A stretch of 64,000 nt of DNA from Mobula hypostoma. Taxonomy: Eukaryota. Position numbers and translations under genes: made by a program. Below the pieces are notes generated by a model that ran no database searches, was not told the origin of the DNA, and worked only from the letters and a program-made list of their open reading frames with translations. This document shows positions 17,159 to 62,742 of this stretch, in pieces. The DNA lies in assembly GCF_963921235.1 (NCBI RefSeq), contig NC_086097.1:103294001-103358000 (forward strand). The letters run 5' to 3'. Positions within the stretch are counted from its first letter, which is position 1. Each line of letters begins with the position of its first letter.

Positions 17159-18197
17159 CAATTATAAAGAATTTTATAAAAAAAATAACATTAGAGGTTA
17201 AAGGATGGATGTGAAATAAAATGTTTATAAATACGTAAATAAGCTGGCTGGTGGTGTAGTGGCATCAGTGCCGGACTTTGAGGCAAGTGGTCCTGAGTTC
17301 GAACATGGCCAGCTCCTTGCATGCTTTCCATCCATGCTGGATTGAGCATCGAGCTAACGACTCAGCTTCATAAACAATGCTAAAGAAACAGCGAGTTTGA
17401 AGCCCGAGGCATGTAGAGGAACAACAAATGCATAATTACTTGCATGTGTTTACAATATAAACAGCATTATAATCAGTGGTTTAAAGTGTCTACAGTGCAG
17501 TGATGGAGGTAATAGTTAGAGGAGGGTGGGAAGACCAACGGGAGTGGTTGATTAGAATAATTGATAACTTTTAATATACTGTGAAGCTTTTTTTTAATAG
17601 CCCAATAGCACTTTCCAGAAGAGAACTTTTGGAAAATTCAGTTTGCAGTGTGGGTTGTGTTCGCAATAATTTTTCTTACCTTCTTTGTCCTGGACATATA
17701 CAAGGCCTGCAGTGATGGTAGACTCCAGCCAATAATTTTTTTTGCTAATGTGATAATTTGCTGTAGTTTTCAAATATAGTGAGAGGATGCTGCACCAAAC
17801 CAGAGAGGATGCTTTCTATGATGGCAGTGTAGAACTGCACCATTATGTTCTGGGGAAGATGGAATTTTACCAATTTGACGTCCTCTGCCAATCCTGAATG
17901 TTTGCTTTCAGTGATAGACATCCATTGCACCTTCCTTTTTGCTAGTTGATTGTCATTTGGATATATTTTTGTTTTTGGAACCAAAGTGTATGGCATCACC
18001 TTTATCTGCATTTATCCACACCCCTAACTTGTAATTACATTAGAGACTTTTTCATTCTTTTTATAGTTCATAATGTCTTGCTTGTTTTGTCTACTAGAAA
18101 ATGTTGCATTTAGTTCCCTCATCCAGATCATTGCTATACAGTATATGGTGAATCAATATGGACGAAGCTCTGATTCCTGTGACACCCCATAATCGTT

Positions 18198-20287
18198 TGT
18201 AACCCTCAGGCTTGGCCAGCACGTGTTCGTCTAGGGGAAAGCAACTTCTGGCCCCGCCAAACTGAGAGAACTCATTCGTGTGGATGCTGTGTGATGCCCG
18301 GTTACAAATCCGCACTGCAAAATATCAGACTGTACACCATATGCAATTAAATGATTGAACTTTATAAATCTTAATCTGGATAGAGGGTTAGTAAAGAAAA
18401 TAAAAAGTAAAGGGCCCCATTTTAAGGAAAAAGTCTATTGCACATCGTTGGAGCTCACTGTTCTTCCACTTGTTCCCGTTGACCTCCAAGCGTAGCTGGC
18501 CCTCAGACCCTCGCTCCTCAATCCACTCCGTCCGGTGGTCTTCTGACTCTCTCCATTTGCATCCTCTCTCCATCACTGCCTGACGAAAGACCGCGAAAAT
18601 CCCGGCTCCCAGACACACAAGAAAGAATAACATTTCTCCTATTGGATTACATACATTCCAAAGTCCCATCATCTCTAGGTCCCTAAACATTGCTGCTACA
18701 GAGAAACCATTACCTTAAAAGTGGAACATTACATAGAAGCCATTATATTAGCCTTAGCAGTGAAACCTTACAGTGTGTTACACTCTCGCCCCACCAAATT
18801 TAGTCATGTCCTCATGACGTTGAGATAGTTCGCCAACCCTTCCTGCAAAACACAAAGCCCAATCTGGATGTAAAAGGCAGTGACGTAGCTCCCCAACACA
18901 GTAGGGGTCACACTCCGTTCCCCTGGGGCTACGTAGGCCAGCCTATCTGGGGATCTCCTGATTCTCTGAGACCTCTGCACCCCCTCATCTAACCCAATGG
19001 GAGAAGGGCTGGGAGTCTTTTCCTCTGTCAATGGGGAATTAGTGAAAGGCAGCATATTCCACAGAACCCGAGGAACGAGCACAGAGCACTCACAGTTTGG
19101 GGTCTTGGCCAAGTGGTAACTACCCTATTTCCTATAGTTTCTCCCCGGCTTGTCTCACGGGGAACAGGTGCGCCAGGGGCATACCTCTGAGGTCTTTCAG
19201 AGCGTCTACTAAGAGGGCCTCACCCTCAGGCACTCTCGGAAATTAGGGGTCCCAATCACTCTTGCTACCCCACTGGGTTGGACCACCAGTGGCTTTGACT
19301 GGGTGAACCACACAGTGCCTCGTTTAAATTTGGTATTGGGCCCAATGCAGACATGCACTTCCACAAAAGCAGCTCGAAACACTGGGTGCACAGGCAATGT
19401 CCCTGGAAAGCTCTCCCAAGCTTTCTCCTTGCAGGACCCCATAGCCTCCTCAGAAACGATAGAACTCTGTCTTTGAAGTCTCCGCCCCCAGCTACGGGAA
19501 ACTCAACTTGTGACGCAGCCTGCTCGGCTACCTTCTCCTCCTCCTTTACAGTATGGACAGTCCATGGCCCTGCCTCACCTGGGGCACCGATAGACGCTGG
19601 CAGTCCCACTGCTGTTATGTCAGTGCTAGTATGAAGTAAAACAAGGTCTGAGCCCACCATTTTATCAAAACTCCACGCTACAATTTTGACTTTGCCAATA
19701 GCTGTAACCGTACTCAAAAATCGAATTAACAGTTCATCCGGGGTACGAATATCCACCCCACTCAACATGCACGCATTAGTTACCGGTAACTGTACGAAGG
19801 CTCACCACTGCTTCACCCCAGCAGCATCCATACCAGCACAAATTTAAACACACAACCCACTGGTTCAATGCTCAGGGCAATTACACAGCATCCCATGGAA
19901 TCAATCCCGGACGAGCCCCCACAATTGTAACCCTCAGGCTCGGCCAGCACATGTTCGTCTCGGGGGAAACAACTTCTGGCCTTGCCAAACCTAGAAATCT
20001 CGTTTGTGTGGATGCTGTGTGATGTGTTGCCCGGTTACAAATCTGCACTGCAAAATTACAGAAATTATCATATGCAATTAAATGATTGAATTTTATAAAT
20101 CTTAATCTGGATAGAGGGTTAGTAAAGAAAATAAAAAGTAAAAGAGCCCATTTTAAGGAAAATGTCTATTACGTATCATTGGAGTTCACTGTTCGTTCAT
20201 TTGTTCCCTTTGACCTCCAAGCGTAGCCTGCCCTCGGACTCTCGCTCCTCAATTTACTCCGTCCGGTGGTCTTCTGACTCTCTCCAT
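18198..20287 (-). mobile_element. internally deleted Ty3/Gypsy LTR retrotransposon (3' LTR 18198-18782; truncated 5' LTR 19926-20287)
   Basis: Direct repeats starting TGTAACCCTCAGGCT; complete LTR ends GTGTTACA; PBS TGGGGGCTCGTCCGGGAT (tRNA-Pro) at 19904-19921 on minus; purine tract at 18783-18798; PNMA-like gag N-terminus (ORF 19265-19768) and integrase tail RSQRIRRSPDRL (ORF 18804-19112). Confidence 0.88.
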
Positions 20288-21570: not shown

Positions 21571-24454
21571 GTAAGTATCATTTCAGTAGGAGACTGTAAT
21601 AACTATATTCCCAATATGTGTTTCAAGCCAATGCAAATTATGTTTAAGGAAATAGCAGACAGTTTGCTCTCTTGATTAGTTAATCAGTTTAGTTCTCTTG
21701 ATTAATAGATATTGTTGCACTGGAAGAAGTGCAATAGTCAATTTGCACACAAGTAGTTCATACAAACGGCAATGCGGGTACCAAAAAATTATTCTGGTGG
21801 TGTAGTAAGAATCCTAAAATATCGGCCAGAGAGCACAAGGAACAATTGCTGGGATCAAATGTATGATGTGTGGTGGAAGGGTGACCAGGGTGCTAGGTGA
21901 CCGAGGTATTGTCTCTGCCCATCTGAGCCTGTAGTGCTCAAGGCAATGGTCATGTGATGGGTCAAACTGGACAAAGGATCGACCCAGGTAGGGGTGGAGA
22001 GAAGTGACCAGGGTATAAAAGAACGAGCACACCGGTGATGAGATCTCTTGGATTTGGGCTCACCACAGGTTAGGTCGCAACTGACGCTGTGGACTGATTG
22101 GAACGGGGTGCTGCAGTTAAACGGCCTTCTGAGATCAGTACCACTTGTTGTAACTTAGCAATAAAGCATGTCGTTTGCAGCATTGCGTGTGCAAGGCTTG
22201 TGTCTATCAGATCTGCAAACAGTCCTTACCTTTTGGCACAACAATTGGCATCACGAACAGGATCCAGTGAAGTAAACTGCACTTGCAATGTTCAAGAAGA
22301 GTAGAAAAGTCAAGTTGACTCCTGAAGAGTTCTGTGTCCCAGGGTGGACCGACAACTCTGAGGGCTTGGGTAGTTTGGCCAATTTACTGACGGCACATGG
22401 TGCCCCAGTGGACTGGTCAGACAGGCAGAAACCTGCAGGCTAGCCAGAGAGGAGCATTCTGGTTTCTGGCTACAATAAAGGTTTCTGGTAATAAGGGATC
22501 AGCAGGAGGAGCTTAGGAAATTGAGGGAGGAGAATGAGAATTTAAAACAGGTGCACCATGATGGGTGAATCTGTGATATTCACTCAGCAGAGGGCTGAGG
22601 TTTTAGGGGAGAGAAATATGACTATGACCTGTAAGTTAATCAAAGCTAAGCAGGAGGAAGCGGCCTGGCGGTTCCACTGGACCCCAGACCTGGTAAAGGT
22701 GCAGGTCATAGTCTTAAAAGGTGACCGCCCAGGTAGCTGGGAAGGGGACATATGGTATTCTGATGAATCCCGGGGGGGAGCCAGTGAATACGTGTCATTC
22801 CCTTCACCCCTACCATATATGCCCCTCATCCCCAGTGCTGCACGCACTGCCCCCCAGTGTTGACCTGTGAGTCCAGGTGAGACTCATTGCTGTCACCTCT
22901 GAGATAGTGAGCACAGGTGCCAACCCCAGATGTCAGTTTTGCACAGGGAAGTCAGCAGTGAGGAGGATGACCAATGGAGCTACTCCGAACACGAGGCTGC
23001 TTCCCGCCCTGCGGAACACCATAACCATGACTGCCCAGCCCTACACATCTAGGGATCTCTACGATCTAGCAGACTGGCATTGCTGGAAGCCCGGGGAGCC
23101 GCTCGAGGCTTAGCTCCTCCGGTCCTGGGATTGTGGTGTGGATGCAATGTGTTTGATTGACGCTGAGGCAGGCACGCTGGGCACCCTCACCCACTACTAC
23201 AGAGTGGATAATCAAATGCAGAATGGTTGGGGCCAGGGCCACCAGACCTGTTGAGAGGGTATCCGGAGAGCAGTGCAGGAGCATTATGCCTCAATGGCTG
23301 ACTTCCTGTGGACCCTCTGCCAGTGGTTGCTGGTGAGCTCCATTTATGGGACCATCGTGCAGGAGCCCGTCTTGATGACACTTTGCTCAGCGCTGGAAGT
23401 CTCCAACGCTTGATTAAAACAGCGACCCTCTTCTCCCTCCCACCCCCTTTATCTGCACGGTATCCTCCTCCTTCCCCTGCCACTGGCTGTCTGATCAGTG
23501 ATGCCCTAAATTTGTTAGGGGGGCTGGAGGACGTACATCTTCAGGGAGCGCGGGTGGGGGAGGTTGAGCTGAGGAAGAAAGATGTGGGTCACGTGGCAAG
23601 GAAATGTTTTTAGCTTTTCTCTAAGCATGGGTGCCGAAGGAGGAGGTGGACGACATCCTGACTGTCAATGCAGTGCACGCATTATGGAAGGACAAGTGCG
23701 GTAGAGGGAAGGCGGGGGCAGAGGAGTGATCAGACCATTGGCTGGCCACACTGAGCCCCCCTCACTGGAAGGACATTGGGTTGATAGGGTCACGGGGCTT
23801 GAGGGATGGGTTTCACCAGTCTGTAGGAGTGTGGCCAGGTCTCCTGGCAAGTTTATGCGGCAGCCTTGTTCCGACCGGGAGACCTGAGGCAGTATGTACT
23901 GGTGGCAGTTCATTGGGGCAAGGGAAATGTGCAGCAATGGTTAGCGCTAGTTGGTACCGGCTGATGCCACCATTATCCCATGGGAAGCAGGAAAAATTGA
24001 GTCCCAGCAAGTAATGGTAGAGGGCCTGGGTGGTGCGATCACTCTTCCTCGGGAACACCACAGTACAGCTTTCTATTGACAATGGTCCTCATTTTCAGTA
24101 ACTGTTTTGGTGACCCCTCTCCAGAGTGTATCTTGGGGATGAATGTGTTAGGGGGCGATCGTTACATACTAGCAGGGGTCCCTTTACCTTTGGGGTTGGT
24201 AAATCTACATTTATGGTCAGGAGAAGTGTAGCCAGGGCCTGTGCCCATCGCACTATGGGTGTCACTGTTTTGAGGGGTGGTGCCGCCTGTTGCCCCTTCA
24301 CCCCAATGCCATGAGCATTTTAAGTAAAATAGCCCTGGCAGTACATAGATAGCAGCAAGCAGAGGCCACCTACTGTAATAATGAAGGGAAAGGGTCCTTC
24401 ATCGGTAATAGCTTGAGGGCTCACTACACCATTGCAGATCCGCCTGCTCCAGTC

Positions 24455-25089
24455 AATGGTACCTACTGGGTATGCGGACATAAAGCCTATCACTAACTTT
24501 CTGGAATAGGGGCGACCTGTGAGTCTCATGGCCAGTTCCTAAATCATGGAGAGGGTGCTTTTATTTGAAGTATGTAGTACCCCACATGTCGCACCTCATG
24601 GATCTGAAGGAGTACCCCCACCTGATGCGAGCTGAAAGAGCAATCACTGAGGCCGAGAGGTTTTGGTGATAGCCTTCCCTGCCTATGGACTATGAAGTGG
24701 TGACAGCAGCCAGAGAGCTGATTAATATGGCCTCGGCCATAGAAGCTCTTGCAATTAGGGCCTCTACTGTCTTTAGTAAGGTCAACAAAGCCCTCACTGA
24801 GTTCTCAGGAGAATTAGTAGCTGTCCAGACCGTAGCCCTGCAGAACTGGATGGCCATAGACCTCACCCTGGCTGAGAAATGGGGTACATGTGCATTAACT
24901 GGCCAAGAGTGCTGTACCTGTATACCTGACAGCTCTGATAATACTACAAACCTAGCTAGCCACATTCAAAGGACAGTGGAAAAGATTCACAAGGTTGGGG
25001 AACAATATCATGATTATTACACTCCTGGGGTTGATGACCCTTTGGAACAACAGGGCATTGGTGGTCCACTATCATACATTGAGGTCTGA
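24455..25089 (+). pseudogene. retroviral env remnant (SU C-terminus and gamma-type TM ectodomain)
   Basis: NGTYWVCGHKAY at 24455; RAER|AITE furin-like site ~24628; ISD-like ALQNWMAIDLTLAEKWGTC and CX6CC (CALTGQECC) in ORF 24685-25089; stops and frameshifts present. Confidence 0.88.
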
Positions 25090-25129
25090 CAATAGGGGTA
25101 ATAATATTGGCTTTCATGTTGTTTCACTA

Positions 25130-25213
25130 TACATACACACACACACACACACACACATATACATGTATGTATATACACATATGTATACACACATACATAT
25201 ACACATACATACA
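25130..25213. repeat. compound (CA)n/(TACA)n microsatellite inside the ERV
   Basis: Directly visible. Confidence 0.95.
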
Positions 25214-26235
25214 CTAACGAGTAAACTATGGGGGTTGTACTGACTTACGAAATTGTGTAATGTATAATGTAGAGATGTGCAGGGATGTCTTAGATTGTGA
25301 GTGCCCTGTGACTGAGGGGTGGAATGGAGTAAGAATCCTCCAATGTCAGTTAGAGAGCACTAGGAACAATTGCTGGGACCAAATGTGTGATGTGTTGGGG
25401 AAGGGTGACCTGGGTGCTGGGTGACCAAGGTATTGTCTCTGCAGACTTGAGCCTGTAGTGCCCAAGGCAATGGTCACGTGATGGGTTGAGCTGGACAAAG
25501 GATTGACCCAGGCAGGGTCAGAGAGAAGTGACCAAGGTATAAAAGAATGAGCACACCGGTAGTGAGGTCTCTTGCATTTGGGCTCACTACAGGTTAGGTC
25601 GCAAGTGACGCTGTGGGCAAATTGGAAACTGGTTCAGGTACACTTTGGAGATAAGAACCACTTTTTGTAACTTAGCAGTAAAGTGTTGTCTGCAGCATTG
25701 TATGTGCAAGGCTTATTTTTATCAGACCTGTGAAAGTCCTTAACTTCCGGCGCAACAGATTCTATCGCAGCATGATAGAATACATGTGAAAAGAGGGGGA
25801 GGGGGCAGCAGTGGAAGACTGGAAATCAAACATGACTTATTGTGATTCTGGAATTGCAATTTTGCAGCCAAAGGCACTGACCAGCATGAAGGTCATTAAA
25901 GGCTCACATGGAATTAAGCAAAGCTGATGGGTAAACCTTTGGTTTGTCAGTGATGCACAAGTACTGGGCACTGATGGGAGTCCAGCTCTTGGTATGTTGG
26001 TGAAGGGCATGGTCTCTCCTGGTGTAGACTCCGGTGACGAACAGTGTAAATAGCTATGAGGCCTCAGCTCACTGGCTGCAATGCTTACCAATAAAGTTGA
26101 ATGATTGTATAGACAAGGGAAAAATTTGGAATTTGTCACATCAAAAATAATAAATTACAAAAAAGGTTGGAAAAAGTAAAGATCACAGCCACTTAAAGCA
26201 AACATTTCATTTAAAAATTGATTTGCTAGTCAAAC

Positions 26236-26450: not shown

Positions 26451-26759
26451 TGAGGTGTAGTCCATCTGGTCCGGTGATTTATCTACCTTCAGACCTTGCA
26501 GTTTCCCAAGCACCTTCTTCTTAGTAACAACAATCACACTCACTTCTGCCCACTGATATTCTTGAATTTCTGGCATGCTGCTAGTGTCTTTCACAGTAAA
26601 GACTGATGCAAAATACTTATGAAGTTCATCTGCCAAGTGGTCCGATATCCACTCTTGCCTCTATTTTACTCTTTGTATATCTGAAAAAAACCTTTGTTAT
26701 CCAGTTTTGTATTATTGGCTAGTTTACCTTCATATTTTATCTTTTCTAACCTTATGGCC

Positions 26760-28364
26760 TTTTGTCAGTAGCTGCTGTGCTTCCTCCATCTGGTCAGAGA
26801 GCAAGACTATGTCATCTGCAAAATCAAGATCTGTGGGTGTAACTGGTCTGACCCTTTTGGTTCGCCCTGGTTTTATGGTAAAACCAAGCTTGTCATGATC
26901 TTTAGTAGCTTGCCGCAGAGCGTAATCAAGGACCATTATAAAGATGTGGGGTGTCAGAGCGTCTCCTTGCAGCACACCAGCTAGGAGCTCGAACACTGCT
27001 GTTTCTCCGTCTGGTGATACAACTTTCGCCATGGTTTTGGTATAGCTGGACTCTATTGTTCTCAGTAGATGGTCTGGCACTCTGTAAGCTTTCAGGATCT
27101 TTAGCATTTTACCTCGGTGAATGGAGTCAAAAGCTTTGTGGAAATCGATGTAAGTAAGCACGGCTGGTAGGTTGTTCTTCTTGACTTTCTCGATGATCCT
27201 ACGGAGAGCAAGTATTTGCATTACTGTTGTGCGCTTCTGCCGAAAACCATTCTGATTGAATCCTAGCTTAGGATCAATGGCAGTGCGAATCCTGTTCAAA
27301 ATCATCAGATTGTATAGCTTTGCTAAGATGCAGGTGGAGCTGATACTGCGGTAGTTATCTGTCTTTGTGAGGGATCCAGACTTGGGGACTTGGAAAATGT
27401 TTGAGAGTGACCACTGTTCTGGTTTCTTGCCTTTCATCAATGCCGTATTACATATGTCCAGCAAGATGTCGTCCAGGCCGCAGTTCTTCAGGACGTCTGG
27501 CAGTATCCCATCTGGTCCAGCGCTCCTGCCCTGTTTGAGTGCATATTTGATCTTCTTCAGTTCCTCAATGGTGAATGGGCCGTCATCGATGTCGACTTGA
27601 GTTAGTCTCGTGGGTATGTCCTCTTCTTCTTCCTCTTCTGACAAAACTGGAAATAGAATGCAATAAAGTTGGACTTCACCTAAACACTGAAAAGACAGAG
27701 TACATGGCGTTTAACTGCGACGAAGGTACTCTCAAGACCATAGAGAATGATACCATTAAGAAAGTCTTTGACTACAAGTACCTCGGGTCAAGAATGATGA
27801 GTTCAGAGAAGGACATAAAGATACGGAAGGCGCTGGCGTGGAGGGCTATGAACGACATGAAGGAAATCTGGAAGTCAAACCTGACCAGAGGGCTTAAAAA
27901 GAGGATTTTCAGAGCAGTCATAGAGTCCATTCTCACGTACGGATGCGAGGCGTGGGCACTCACCAAGACGATGCTCAAGTCTCTAGATGGTTGCTATACA
28001 CGAAGGCTCCGGATGGCTCTTGATGTGAGTTGGCAACAGCACATGACGAACGTTGAGCTCTATAACAACCTACCGATGCTCTCCACTAAAATCGAGGCGA
28101 GAAGACTGCAACTAGCGGGGCACTGTCTACGCCACCCCGAGCTACCTGCCAGCCTAGTCATCATATGGGAGCCCAAGCACGGGAGGATGAACCCTGGGCG
28201 CCCTCCCAAGACTATGGTCAACATGCTCCTAGAAGACAGCGGCGCGGCTAATGTAGATGAACTGAACACACTGATGAGGGAGAGGGAGAAGTGGAGAGTC
28301 TGTCATCATGCCCAACACCAGCCCCCTAGGCCTGAGTCGACGTAGTAGTAGTAGCAGTAGTGAT
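26760..28364. mobile_element. RTE-clade LINE with inverted 5' half (26760-27637 minus, 27638-28364 plus)
   Basis: Minus ORF ends DLDFADDIVLL...QQLLTK and plus ORF resumes LTKLEIECNKVGL; (GTA)n tail; TSD-like CTTATGGCYTTTT at 26751-26763 and 28365-28377. Confidence 0.9.
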
Positions 28365-33284: not shown

Positions 33285-34474
33285 GGCTATGTCCACACTA
33301 GACCGGATAATTTTGAAAACGCCGGTTTCACGTAGAAACGACAGGTGTCCGCACTAGGCGTTTTTAAAAATACCTCTGTTCTCATTAAAACGGATATTTG
33401 GGCGAATCCCCTCCTACTGGGCATGCGCAGGAAACACAGAAAACAAGTGAAGAGGAAACGGTATACTTGGTGCGCGTTTGTCCAGTTACAGACTAGAAAA
33501 ACTTAAAAGGAAATTGCCAAATGAAAGACTTGGTGTGTGTTTGTTCAGTTACAGACTAGAACAACTTAAAAGGAAGTTGCCAAATGAAAGACTTGGTGCG
33601 TGTTTGTCCAGTTACGGACTAGAAAAACTTAAAAGGAAATTGCCAAATGAAAGACTTGGTGTGCGTTTGTCCAGTTACGGACTAGAACAACTTAAAAGGA
33701 AGTTGCCAAATGAAAGACTTGGTGTGCGTTTGTCCAGTTACGGACTAGAAAAACTTTAAAGGAAATTGCCAAACGAAAGATATGGTGTGCGTTTGTCCAG
33801 TTACGGACTAGAAAAACTTTAAAGGAAATTGCCAAACGAAAGATATGGTGCGAGTTTGTCCAGAAACATTTCCTACAGCCATAGTGTCTTCACCGATGAA
33901 AGGGACGACAGCTACAACTAAATGCAATAAGGCTTGTTACTGGGCAAAAGTGAAATTTGTTGTTACCTCATTTGTTTGCCTTTACTTTTGCCATGTCTTT
34001 GTATATTACTTTGCTGTGTTTAACGTGCAATAAAATGAGTTACTGGGCAAAAGTGACAATTGCATCTATTGAATGTTTGCACAAGCAATACATTAATGAA
34101 GCATCTTGCTAAATGTATAAAACACGTCTGCATCAGTGTTATCTTGTATTTCCATACAATGTTACATTCGGCTGTTATACATCTATTGTCAGATATTGTT
34201 GTGGTGTTGGAGGTTGCATTCAAGAAAACAATGAAATGCAGTGCTGCTGCCACCATTTGTTCTGGCATGTCATGACAGCGGTTTTTAAAATAGCCGGTTA
34301 CACTGTACACACTACGCCGGATATTAGGCATTTTCAGATGTATTCACTCTGGAGAGCGTTTCTGAAAATCTCAGTTTTTGGGGGAGGAAAACGCCCTTTC
34401 AGTGTGGACAGAGGGTCAAAACGAAGAGAAAAAGCTTTGGTTACGGATTTATCCGGTCTAGTGTGGACGTAACC
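33285..34474. mobile_element. non-autonomous PIF/Harbinger DNA transposon
   Basis: 26-bp TIRs GGCTATGTCCACACTAGACCGGATAA / TTATCCGGTCTAGTGTGGACGTAACC with TTA target duplication (33282-33284, 34475-34477). Confidence 0.9.
33465..33863. repeat. 63-bp minisatellite, about 6.3 copies
   Basis: Unit ACTTGGTGYGYGTTTGTCCAGTTACRGACTAGAAMAACTTAAAAGGAARTTGCCAAATGAAAG repeated head to tail without spacers. Confidence 0.97.
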
Positions 34475-58869: not shown

Positions 58870-61800
58870 CAGAAAACTGGGTCACTGTCAAGAGAGGGAA
58901 GGGAAATGCCCGGATAGTGGAGAGCACACCTGTGGCTGCCCCCCTCAGCAACAAATATCTTGTTTTGGATGCTATTGAGAGGACGCCCACGGTGACCGGG
59001 TCTCTGGCACTGAGCCTGGCGCTGTTGTGCAGGAGAGAAGGAGGGAGAAGAGGAATGCAGTAGTCATAGGGGATTCCATAATCAGGGGAATGGACAGGAG
59101 ATTCTGTGAGCCTGATAGAGATACCCACATGGTGTTTTGCCTCCCAGGTGCCAGGGTACGGGATGTCTCGGATCGGGTCCTGAATATTCTGAAGGGGGAG
59201 GGTGAGCAGCCAGTGGTCTTGGTACATGTTGGTACCAATGACATAGAAAGGACAAAGGAGGAGGTCCTGAAGAGAAATTTCTGGGAGTTAGGAAGAAAGC
59301 TGAAAAGCAGGACCTCCAGGGTAGTAATTTCGGGATTGCTACCTGTGCCACGTACTAGCGAAGGCAAGAATAGTAGGATCAGGCAGATGAATGAGTGGCT
59401 GAGAGACTGGTGCAGGGGGCAGGGTTTCAGATTCTTGGATAATTGGGCTCTCTTCTGGGGGAAGTATGACCTGTTCAAAAAGGACAGGTTACACCTGAAC
59501 CCGAAAGGGACCAATATCCTGGCGGGAAAGTTTAATAGAGCTGTTAGGGAGGGTTTAAACTAATTTGGCAGGGGGATGGGAACCGGAATGGCAGAGCATA
59601 GGAAGGGGAAAACAGAAGTAAATCTAAGATAGTGAATAGTAAAGATGTCAGGAAAGACAGGCAGGTGATGGGGCAAATTTGTAGCCATTGGGATGAGTTG
59701 CAGTGCAATAAAGTTGCAGTGAAATCAAAGCGAAAAGTACCAAATACTGGTCTTAAGGTGTTATACTTAAATGCACACAGCATAAGGAATAAGGTGGATG
59801 ATCTTGTCGTACAGCTACAGATTGGCAGGTATGATATTGTGGCCATCACTGAGACGTGGCTAAAGGATGCATGTCTCTGGGAGTTGAACGTCCAAGGGTA
59901 CTCGGTGTATCGGAAGGATAGGAAGGTAGGCAGAGGGGGAGGCGTGGCTTTATTGGTAAGAAATGATATTAAATCATTAGAAAGAGGTGATATAGGATCA
60001 GAAGGTGCAGAATCTTTATGGGTTGAGCTAAGAAATCGCAGGGGTAAAAGGACCCTGATGGCAGTTATTTATAGGCCTCCAAACAGTTGCAGGGATATGG
60101 ACTACAAATTACTACAGGAAATAGAAAAGGCTTGTCAGAAGGGCAGTGTTATGATAATTGTGGAGGATTTTAACGTGTGAGTGGATTGGGAAAATCAGGT
60201 CAGCACTGGATCTCAAGAGAGAGAATTTGTAGAATGTCCACGAGATGGCTTTTTAGAACAGCTTGTTGTTGAGCCCACTAGGGGATCGGCTGTACTAGAT
60301 TGGGTATTGTGTAACGAACCAGAGGTGATTAGAGAGATTGAGGTGAAGGAACCCTTAGGAGGCAGTGATCATAACATGATTGAGTTCACTCTAAAATTTG
60401 AAAAAGAGAAGCCGAAATCTGATGTGTCGGTATTTCAGTGGAGTAAAGGAAATTACAGTGGCATGAGAGAGGAACTGGCCAAAGTTGACTGGAAAGGGAC
60501 ACTGGCGGGAAAGACAGCACAGCAGCAGTGGCTGGAGTTTATGCGAGAAGTGAGGAAGGTGCAAGACAGGTACATTCCAAAAAAGAAGAAATTTTCGAAT
60601 GGAAAAAGGATGCAACCGTGGTTGACAAGAGAAGTCAAAGCCAAGGTTAAAGCAAAGGAGAGGGCATACAAGGAAGCAAAAATTAGTGGGAAGACAGAGG
60701 ATTGGGAAGTTTTTAAGTGTTTACAAAAGGAAACTAAGAAGGTCATTAAGAGGGAAAAGATTAACTATGAAAGGAAGCTAGCAAATAATATCAAAGTGGA
60801 TACGAAAAGTTTTTTCAAGTATATGAAGAGTAAAAGACAGGTGAGAGTAGATATAGGACCGATAGAAAATGATGCTGGAGAAATTGTAATGGGAGATAAG
60901 GAGATGGCGGAGGAACTGAACGAGTATTTTTCATCATCTTCACTGAGGAAGACATCAGCAGTATACCGGACACTCAAGGGTGGCAGGGAAGAGAAGTGTG
61001 CGCAGTCACAATTACGACAGAGAAAGTACTCAGGAAGCTGAATAGTCTAAAGGTAGATAAATCTCCCGGACCAGATGGAATGCACCCGCGTGTTCTGAAG
61101 GAAGTAGCTGTGGAGATTGCGGAGGCATTAGCGATGATCTTTCAAAAGTCAATAGATTCTGGCATGGTTCCGAAGGACTGGAAGATTGCAAATGTCACTC
61201 CGCTTTTTAAGAAGGGGGCAAGGAAGCAAAAAGGAAATTATAGACCTGTTAGCTTGACATTGGTGGTTGGGAAGTCATTGGAGTCGATTGTCAAGAGGTT
61301 ACAGAGTACCTGGAGGCATATGACAAGATAGGCAGAACTCAACATGGATTCCTTAAAGGAAATCATGCCTGACAAACCTATTACAATTTTTTGAGGAAAT
61401 TACCAGTAAGCTAGACAAGGGAGATGCAGTGGTATTGTATATTTGGATTTTCAGAAGGCCTTTGACAAGGTGCCACACATGAGGCTACTTAACAAGATAA
61501 GAGCGCATGGAATTACGGGAAAGTTACATACGTGGATAGAGTGTTGGCTGATTGGCAGGAAACAGAGAGTGGGAATAAAGGGATCCTATTCTGGTTGGCT
61601 CCCAGTGGTGTTCCACAGGGGTCCATGTTGGGGCCGCTTCTATTTACATTGTACATCAACGATTTGGATTATGGAATAGATGGCTTTGTGGCTAAGTTTG
61701 CTGACGATACGAAGATAGGTGGAGGGACCGGTAGTGCTGAGGAAACGGAGAGTCTGCAGAGAGACTTGGGTAGATTGGAAGAATGGGCAAAGAAGTGGCA

Positions 61801-62742
61801 AATGAAATACAATGTTGGAAAGTGTATGGTTATGCACTTTGGCAGAAGAAATAAACGGGCAGACTATTATTTAAATGAGGAAAGAATTCAAAGTTCTGAG
61901 ATGCAACAGGCCTTGGGAGTCCTCGTATAGGGTACCCTTAAGGTTAACTTCCAGGTTGAGTCGGTGGTGAAGAAGGCGAATGCAGTGTTGGCATTCATTT
62001 CTAGAGGAATAGAGTATAGCAGCCGGGATGTGATGTTGAGGCTCTATAAGGCACTGGTGAGACTTCACTTGGAGTACTGTGGGCAGTTTTGGTCTCCTTA
62101 TTAAAGAAAGGATGTGCTGACGTTGGAGAGGGTACAGAGAAGATTCAGTAGAATGATTCCGGGAATGAGAGGGTTAACATATGAGGAACGTTTGTCCGCT
62201 CTTGGACTGTATTCCTTGGAGTTTAGAAGAATGAGGGGAGACGTCATGGAAACATTTCGAATGTTGAAAGGCATGGACAGAGTGGATGTGGCAAAGTTGT
62301 TTCCCATGATGGGGGAGTCTAGTACGAGAGGGCATGACTTAAGGATTGAAGGGCGCCCATTCAGAACAGAAATGCAAAGAAATTTTTTTAGTCAGAGGGT
62401 GGTGAATCTATGGAATTTGTTGCCACGGGCAGCAGTGGAGGCCAAGTCATTGGGTGTCTTTAAGGCAGAGATTGATAGGTATCTGAGTGTCCGTTTAAAA
62501 CAGATATGGAAAAATTTCTATAGCCAGCGGGTGGTGAATTTGTGGAATTTACTACCACAGCCAGCTGTGGAGGCCAGGTCATTAGGTGTATTTAAGGCAG
62601 AGCTCAATAGGTTCTTTATTGGACACTGCTTCAAAGGTTCTGGGGAGAAGGCCATGGAGTGGGGCTGAGGAGGGTAAGAAATGACGGAGCAGACTTGATG
62701 GGGCCAAATGGCCTAATGCTTCTTCTATGTGTTATGGTCTTA
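58870..62742 (+). mobile_element. near full-length CR1 LINE: ORF1 SGNH-esterase domain, ORF2 APE endonuclease and RT, disrupted
   Basis: ORF 59027-59563 (VIGDSII, VHVGTND, DRLHLN); 59632-61041 (YLNAHSI, ITETWL, IYRPP, GSDHN) with one stop at 60178; RT motifs to 62668. Confidence 0.95.

Follow-up and report, generated by a model that had tools for sequence, protein, structure and literature searches.

What kind of retrovirus left the remnant at positions 21801-25757 (+) of the window, that is, of the whole 64,000-nt stretch of contig NC_086097.1 (103,294,001 to 103,358,000) analysed here, and how much of its original make-up can still be recognised? The locus is a genuine retroviral provirus, old and inert: the order long terminal repeat (LTR), primer binding site (PBS), gag, pro, a deletion, the end of env, polypurine tract (PPT) and LTR can be followed from end to end, every gene is decayed, and the interior measures just 3081 nt. 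It is very probably what is left of a simple class III retrovirus from the ERV-L/ERV-S/XtERV-S branch of clade Huo that carried a gamma-type envelope: a dead provirus with an internal deletion. Sequence similarity in gag and protease supports membership of the ERV-L/ERV-S branch, and the joining of such a gag-pro region to a gamma-type transmembrane protein (TM) in one provirus is supported likewise. The element is not ERV-L proper, as an env is present and the PBS is Ser-like rather than Leu. The initial annotation of this DNA had proposed much the same hybrid, and the strings it quoted all occur where it placed them (SWEGDIW at 22735, YTSRDLYDL at 23042, GDLRQY at 23878 and SIDNGP at 24072), as do the immunosuppressive domain (ISD; 24838), the CX6CC motif (24889), the PBS (22246) and the PPT (25314).

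The class assignment starts from gag, whose remnant (22288-23787, +) is spread over several frames with stops. Here, and wherever published elements are described below, the description goes as far as the cited sections and supplements. The main reference was one (L005) of five near-identical loci, L005-L009, that were pulled from metagenome contigs by a protease pattern. Its reverse transcriptase (RT) has YIDD and its integrase is followed by a dUTPase, both of which are ERV-L marks (Table 2, PMC8278194), and its major homology region (MHR) equals the MuERV-L row of Fig. S6 in that paper; judged by these features it is a mouse ERV-L-type locus, and it is used as a stand-in for MuERV-L/HERV-L. 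Two pieces of the remnant match it colinearly, namely 22558-22824 against Gag residues 121-218 (score 77) and 23042-23215 against residues 264-321 (score 69), and in neither case did any of 500 shuffles score as high. Since L005 was fetched on its protease pattern only, these gag matches are independent of that choice. For the Gag N-terminus, as for the C-terminal third, the scores against L005 were not convincing.

The gag and protease pieces were also scored against 37 control retrovirus genomes from the viral collection, grouped by our own assignment from RT motif and length as 12 gamma-like, 8 delta-like and 17 foamy-like, and L005 was the best of the 38 each time (gag 77 vs 50 for the next and 69 vs 51; protease 80 vs 36). 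Gag and protease are thus nearer to L005 than to a gamma, delta or foamy core in any of the controls, and the ERV-L-like gag and pro of the initial annotation are borne out.

The second gag piece (23042-23215, +) is a capsid/MHR fragment of class III type with a W-D-x-G ending and one stop. Within a 20-residue MHR window compared by eye, with rows taken from Fig. S6 of PMC8278194 plus the whale-shark element Rh_ty_ERV3, 11 residues are identical to HERV-S, 10 to Rh_ty_ERV3, 9 to MuERV-L and 8 to XtERV-S, vs at most 5 in five gammaretrovirus rows. Over 55 capsid residues, again by eye, the counts are 19 for MuERV-L, 20 for XtERV-S, 20 for P0003 and 21 for Rh_ty_ERV3, so that four class III references are equally near and the place of the element inside the group is not resolvable from them. 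The label ‘HERV-S-like’ given to it earlier therefore holds only in the one MHR window (11/20, vs 8-10 for the other class III rows). P0003, a capsid piece of class III type (157 aa) on a public contig of 675 nt, was the sole genuine match of a HMMER search with the capsid piece. L005-L009, for their part, are elements of the mouse ERV-L type whose gag and pol frames are open; the public metagenome contigs in which they lie are presumably host DNA.

The decayed gag shows neither a myristoyl signal (Gly2), its N-terminus being basic, nor a CCHC box in any frame, though decay could hide one of the latter. Its probable end is a pair of stops at 23782-23787, which lie in the protease frame about 30 codons ahead of the first protease motif; a stop is found likewise in L005.

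Past these stops, the protease remnant (23878-24150, +) runs through three frames, has no D[TS]G left and retains a flap-like EGLGG (24020) and SIDNGPHF (24072). Its 90 codons from 23881 to 24150 are colinear with residues 30-120 (91 residues) of the ERV-L Pol of L005. Three pieces carry this alignment: 23881-23961 on Pol 30-56, which scores 80 and has a VHWGKGN start identical to that of ERV-L; 23960-24040 on Pol 57-83, with a score that 17 of 500 shuffles also reached; and 24115-24150 on Pol 109-120, where one of 500 shuffles did so against the whole Pol. SIDNGPHF had previously been taken for a scrap of integrase, and this must be rejected: its score against the integrase core (26) is reached by 20% of shuffles, and as it sits between the second and third colinear protease pieces, there is no space for an integrase fragment. 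By eye, frog class III proteases have a look-alike at the same place (6 of 9 residues in the bullfrog ERV and 5 of 9 in XtERV-S2), flanked by the common EGLGG flap and ILGM.

Beyond the protease, comparison by eye with the frog elements shows a faint trace of the first codons of pol at approximately 24151-24350 (+), a segment that gave no significant score against the ERV-L Pol of L005, and no pol match extends past residue 120 of the latter. A large internal deletion is located at about 24350-24400 (+), from which RT, RNase H, integrase, the env signal peptide and most of the surface protein (SU) with its CXXC are missing; YxDD, LPQG and HHCC motifs are absent from every plus-strand frame, and CXXC from 24300 to 24880. 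RT, RNase H and integrase have been lost from this copy, and comparison with the 8.0-kb XtERV-S puts the deletion at an estimated ~3.5 kb.

What remains of env begins with the C-terminal end of SU and a broken fusion-peptide region (24400-24672, +). Its roughly 80 codons resemble XtERV-S2 env by eye, whereas against the 38 genomes the late SU region gave no significant score (best 45, median 34). The cleavage site near 24628 is non-canonical, and no canonical furin motif is present at the SU/TM junction. The TM that follows (24673-25089, +) is of gamma type and is the longest open frame of the element, with 138 codons, a heptad repeat, the ISD and the CX6CC motif (24889-24915). It matches syncytin-1 in PDB (E 2.5e-7), falls into TLV_coat clusters of the Atlas at 0.94 and, among the control genomes, scores best against the gammaretrovirus type (top 91, median 57), while the Pfam TLV_coat match stays under the cut-off (E 0.049). 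The syncytin-1 match and the presence of both motifs agree with the gamma-type env proposed for this locus. Compared by eye, the heptad region is 7 residues longer than that of XtERV-S, as it also is in the bullfrog ERV, Syn-Car1 and Syn-Rum1, and this copy shows no stutter glycosylation site. A hydrophobic 15-residue stub at 25083-25214 (+), out of frame, is the probable membrane anchor, even if no 17-residue window reaches the hydropathy threshold of 1.9. At the env tail it is broken off by a microsatellite, (CA/TA)n at 25128-25214, which the initial annotation had missed.

Both LTRs have TG...CA ends and a TATA box. The 5′ LTR (21801-22243, +) is 443 nt long, with its TATA box at 22014 and AATAAA at 22160; in the 3′ LTR (25325-25757, +), of 433 nt, the TATA box lies at 25538 and the poly(A) signal reads AGTAAA (25677), AATAAA being present in the 5′ copy only. 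The 18-nt PBS (22246-22263, +) begins 2 nt beyond the 5′ LTR and is Ser-like; set by eye against the Ser(AGA/TGA) PBS of XtERV-S, its first 4 and last 6 bases match and the middle differs. The 11-nt PPT (25314-25324, +) abuts the 3′ LTR and ends in GGGTGGAA, like that of XtERV-S2 (by eye).

Several points weigh against the assignment to the ERV-L/ERV-S/XtERV-S branch, or at least limit its reach. With RT absent, the class rests on gag and protease, and the protease score of 80 is circular, L005 having been picked on that very motif. The control set contains no epsilon or snakehead-type genomes, and the comparisons with XtERV-S, the bullfrog ERV, HERV-S and Rh_ty_ERV3 were made by eye from supplements. 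Pfam assigns no family to the gag and pro pieces. Protein homolog searches with the capsid, the TM and a two-sequence capsid profile, confined to longer targets, retained 0 from 16, 388 and 2214 candidates, which is weak evidence, and the HMMER search, which covered 1.84 billion proteins, gave 2 weak matches, the other of which (P0002) is a repeat artefact. The PBS anticodon, which agrees with a vertebrate tRNA-Ser(CGA), is a tentative assignment; a search for it brought up a single locus, which is not a tRNA. Finally, the assignment alone gives no explanation for the missing target-site duplication (TSD), to which we return below. Scans of viral contigs for relatives ended in 4 chance loci, then 0 and again 0, and an Atlas search with the N-terminal gag frame had no usable match.

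If the likeness to ERV-L were superficial, the core could instead be of snakehead type, from the other branch of clade Huo, or class I and epsilon-like. Both types are well known in sharks, elephant-shark ERVs being snakehead-like or epsilon-like (Han 2015), and neither is among the 37 controls. This reading is nevertheless very improbable, given that ERV-L Gag is matched at two colinear places and that Rh_ty_ERV2, which is listed beside the snakehead retrovirus, differs in its protease lead-in and possesses a CCHC box (PMC6001957), of which no trace was seen in the element. Somewhat less improbable, if still unlikely, is that the element stands for a separate elasmobranch lineage of great age, close to where ERV-L, ERV-S and XtERV-S share their root. 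In the combination seen here, a protease that starts as in ERV-L (VHWGKGN) and ends much as in XtERV-S goes together with a Ser-like primer and an XtERV-S-type envelope. Were such a root-near position true, the ancestor of the env-less mammalian ERV-L would have been an enveloped, water-borne virus; if, in addition, the LTRs were a true pair evolving at shark rates, the provirus would be well over 100 million years old and datable by ray and shark orthologs. The copy at 21801-25757 alone cannot settle the phylogeny. That the host has kept the TM frame as a co-opted env fragment deserves hardly any credence: it is the longest open frame of the element, at 138 codons, but it has no signal peptide, SU is mostly deleted, the fusion-peptide region is out of frame, and the anchor is both out of frame and split by the microsatellite.

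The history of this particular copy is a separate matter from its class. The two LTRs differ by 66 substitutions over 433 aligned sites (15.2%; 42 transitions and 24 transversions), within the 15-20% estimated earlier by eye, and the alignment proposed for dating them gives a Kimura two-parameter (K2P) distance of 0.173 (bootstrap 0.13-0.23). This distance supports the old insertion that had been suggested. [quoted passage not shown] Sequencing runs of a second organism (one sample from one study) contain 43-46% of the 31-letter words. Should these come from a full-length ortholog, it would be ~97.5% identical and the insertion about seven times older than the species split. Smaller shares, 0.05-0.19, in further organisms and in one possible RNA run are not used here, and none of the runs is an RNA run with certainty.

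Such dates need both LTRs to stem from one insertion, and the missing TSD puts this in doubt. No TSD, a point the initial annotation had also overlooked, is found at 21796-21800 and 25758-25762 (GGTGG vs GATTC), whereas XtERV-S and ERV-L have one of 5 bp (PMC8278194). Decay at the LTR rate would leave 3 of 5 flank bases different with P = 0.028; for a 4-bp TSD the value is 0.012 and for a 6-bp TSD 0.0004. The absence bears on the history of this copy and not on its family membership. It is possible, if on the whole rather doubtful, that the locus arose by recombination between non-allelic copies, two in number, of the family, or that one flank was lost, in which case the two LTRs would not have been identical at the outset and their distance of 17% would overstate the age while the class would stay the same; this is compatible with the class III assignment. 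Besides the flanks (P = 0.028), the ~390 My that follow from the Han 2015 shark rate speak for such an event, being hard to reconcile with an open TM frame of 138 codons, although the date depends on an assumed rate from which the host's own may differ. A small indel in a flank would likewise remove the TSD, and the divergence of the LTRs is even (82-90% identity in 13 of 16 windows of 50 columns) and all internal genes are decayed, as an old insertion predicts. PBS-like sequence past the 3′ LTR and PPT-like sequence before the 5′ LTR were looked for as well, and the resemblances do not exceed chance (1259 and 9112 of 20000 randomly drawn places). Within the LTRs, a patch at 22086-22145 vs 25610-25662 is only 64-66% identical and has a 7-nt gap, compared with 80-90% elsewhere; local conversion or replacement could account for it.

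A similar degree of doubt attaches to the idea that the copy belongs to an amplified non-autonomous family with exactly this deletion, mobilised in trans by an intact helper, rather than having suffered a one-off loss after insertion. In its favour, all cis signals are retained and pol is cleanly removed, and among the 19 XtERV-S copies with deletions in X. tropicalis, 11 have a similar structure (PMC8278194). Against this, neither a second copy nor a solo LTR of the provirus occurs in the 64-kb window.

Taking the element as an internally deleted class III provirus with a gamma-type envelope, the working of its parent virus can be sketched by analogy with XtERV-S and ERV-L. Reverse transcription would have been primed by a serine tRNA; Gag would have had a basic N-terminus and neither myristoyl signal nor zinc knuckle; Pro-Pol would have shared its frame with the gag stop and been reached by read-through; and entry into the cell would have proceeded via a disulphide-linked SU/TM. 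On this view the virus infected the germ line and lost ~3.5 kb, either while being copied with the aid of a helper genome, for which the necessary cis signals are all retained, or after insertion, and it has drifted since. No working protein is encoded by the element; if it has an effect today, this would be exerted via the putative LTR promoter or the poly(A) signals.

The surroundings of the provirus hold a number of other features. A Codanin-1-like exon lies at 1306-1977 (+; PDB E 2.4e-12), 20 kb upstream and on the same strand. Scanning 143 of the 314 plus-strand stop-free frames against Pfam revealed no further Codanin-1 exons, and an intronic position of the provirus is therefore not established. 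Direct repeats at 18197-18556 and 19925-20287, 87% identical over 365 nt, enclose ~1.4 kb with a minus-strand frame of 178 codons (19265-19801); the whole (18197-20287) could represent a further small LTR element that retains a gag-like remnant. A fairly well-kept long interspersed nuclear element (LINE) of CR1 type at 58979-61930 (+) has a GDSL/SGNH esterase frame, followed by endonuclease and RT-like frames. The Codanin-1-like exon and the CR1-type LINEs mark the DNA as vertebrate, and its repeats suggest a ray or shark as host; HE1 short interspersed elements (SINEs) are tied to elasmobranchs in the literature. Further LINE RT-like frames at 26730-27710 (-) and 27575-28345 (+) look like a single LINE with an inverted part (26730-28345), and a tandem array at 33465-33863 consists of a 63-nt unit whose copies are 90-93% alike.

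How, then, does the element compare with what is already known? MuERV-L/HERV-L, as represented by L005, share with it two gag blocks and a colinear protease, including 19 of 58 capsid residues, but ERV-L is Leu-primed and env-less. HERV-S/ERV-S, marked by the absence of dUTPase, are Ser-primed class III elements with env (PMC8278194), and HERV-S is the best single MHR row (11/20), the comparison covering its MHR and TM rows. A gamma-type env has been reported in 6 cartilaginous fish genomes, and one anamniote ERV lineage, ERV-SA.a-Ppe, joins such an env to a class III Pol (Chen et al., bioRxiv 10.1101/2021.11.23.469661); however, the class III Pol described there is called snakehead-related, unlike the ERV-L-like gag and pro seen here. 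Class III as such is no rarity in these animals, clade III making up the majority of the ERV RT loci in 6 chondrichthyan genomes (2843 vs 2018 of clade I; PMC11089739).

The initial annotation had further suspected a possibly undescribed lineage, a suspicion that is not supported. The whale-shark element Rh_ty_ERV3 (Xu 2018, PMC6001957) has the same capsid and flap motifs: 21 of 55 (22 of 64) capsid residues are identical without gaps, GEPL and SWD are common to both, and so is the flap run GGAIT, which occurs once among the first 400 letters of the S2 Data entries. At the head of clade Huo its label comes immediately ahead of No_fu_ERV1, HERVL, MuERV-L and HERV-S, as far as label order and support values tell. 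At only ~35% identity it is a different family, and it has pol, whereas the element has lost RT, RNase H and integrase. No paper on an env-bearing family of the ERV-L/S branch in sharks or rays was found, and the S1-S3 Data of Chen et al., the rest of the Xu entries or Dfam/Repbase may hold one. For its part, the present locus links the class III core known from the whale shark, an XtERV-S-type envelope and a Ser-like primer in one element, and thereby extends the XtERV-S architecture to a probable cartilaginous fish; it also directs attention to a family in which an RT-bearing copy would be worth seeking, and can serve to test LTR dating where genomes evolve slowly.

That architecture, a class III core with a gamma-type env and a Ser primer, has already been published for XtERV-S and, in less complete form, for ERV-S. 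XtERV-S and the African bullfrog ERV were described by Yedavalli et al. 2021 (PMC8278194). The former, which comes from African frogs, was presented as unusual and perhaps transitional, and it is still termed unusual in a review of 2023 (PMC10536682). Compared by eye, the element runs parallel to XtERV-S from the LTR end to the PPT. It shares with both frog elements the class III gag-pro and gamma-type TM, the TGT...ACA LTR ends, a basic Gag start in which no Gly2 is seen, no visible CCHC box (though decay could hide one here), motifs in the flap and at the C terminus of the protease, a cysteine motif late in SU and the fusion-peptide motifs; with XtERV-S it shares a Ser-like PBS 2 nt beyond the LTR, and with XtERV-S2 the TGTAGT start and the PPT end. 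The differences are that XtERV-S uses Ser AGA/TGA and the bullfrog ERV Leu, while the PBS of the element differs in the middle; that its LTR has 443 nt vs 705 nt in XtERV-S; that XtERV-S does not have the ERV-L-type protease start VHWGKGN; and that XtERV-S is intact, whereas the element is old and pol-less. It is a further example of the hybrid type known from frogs, with a published relative in the whale shark, and not a new kind.

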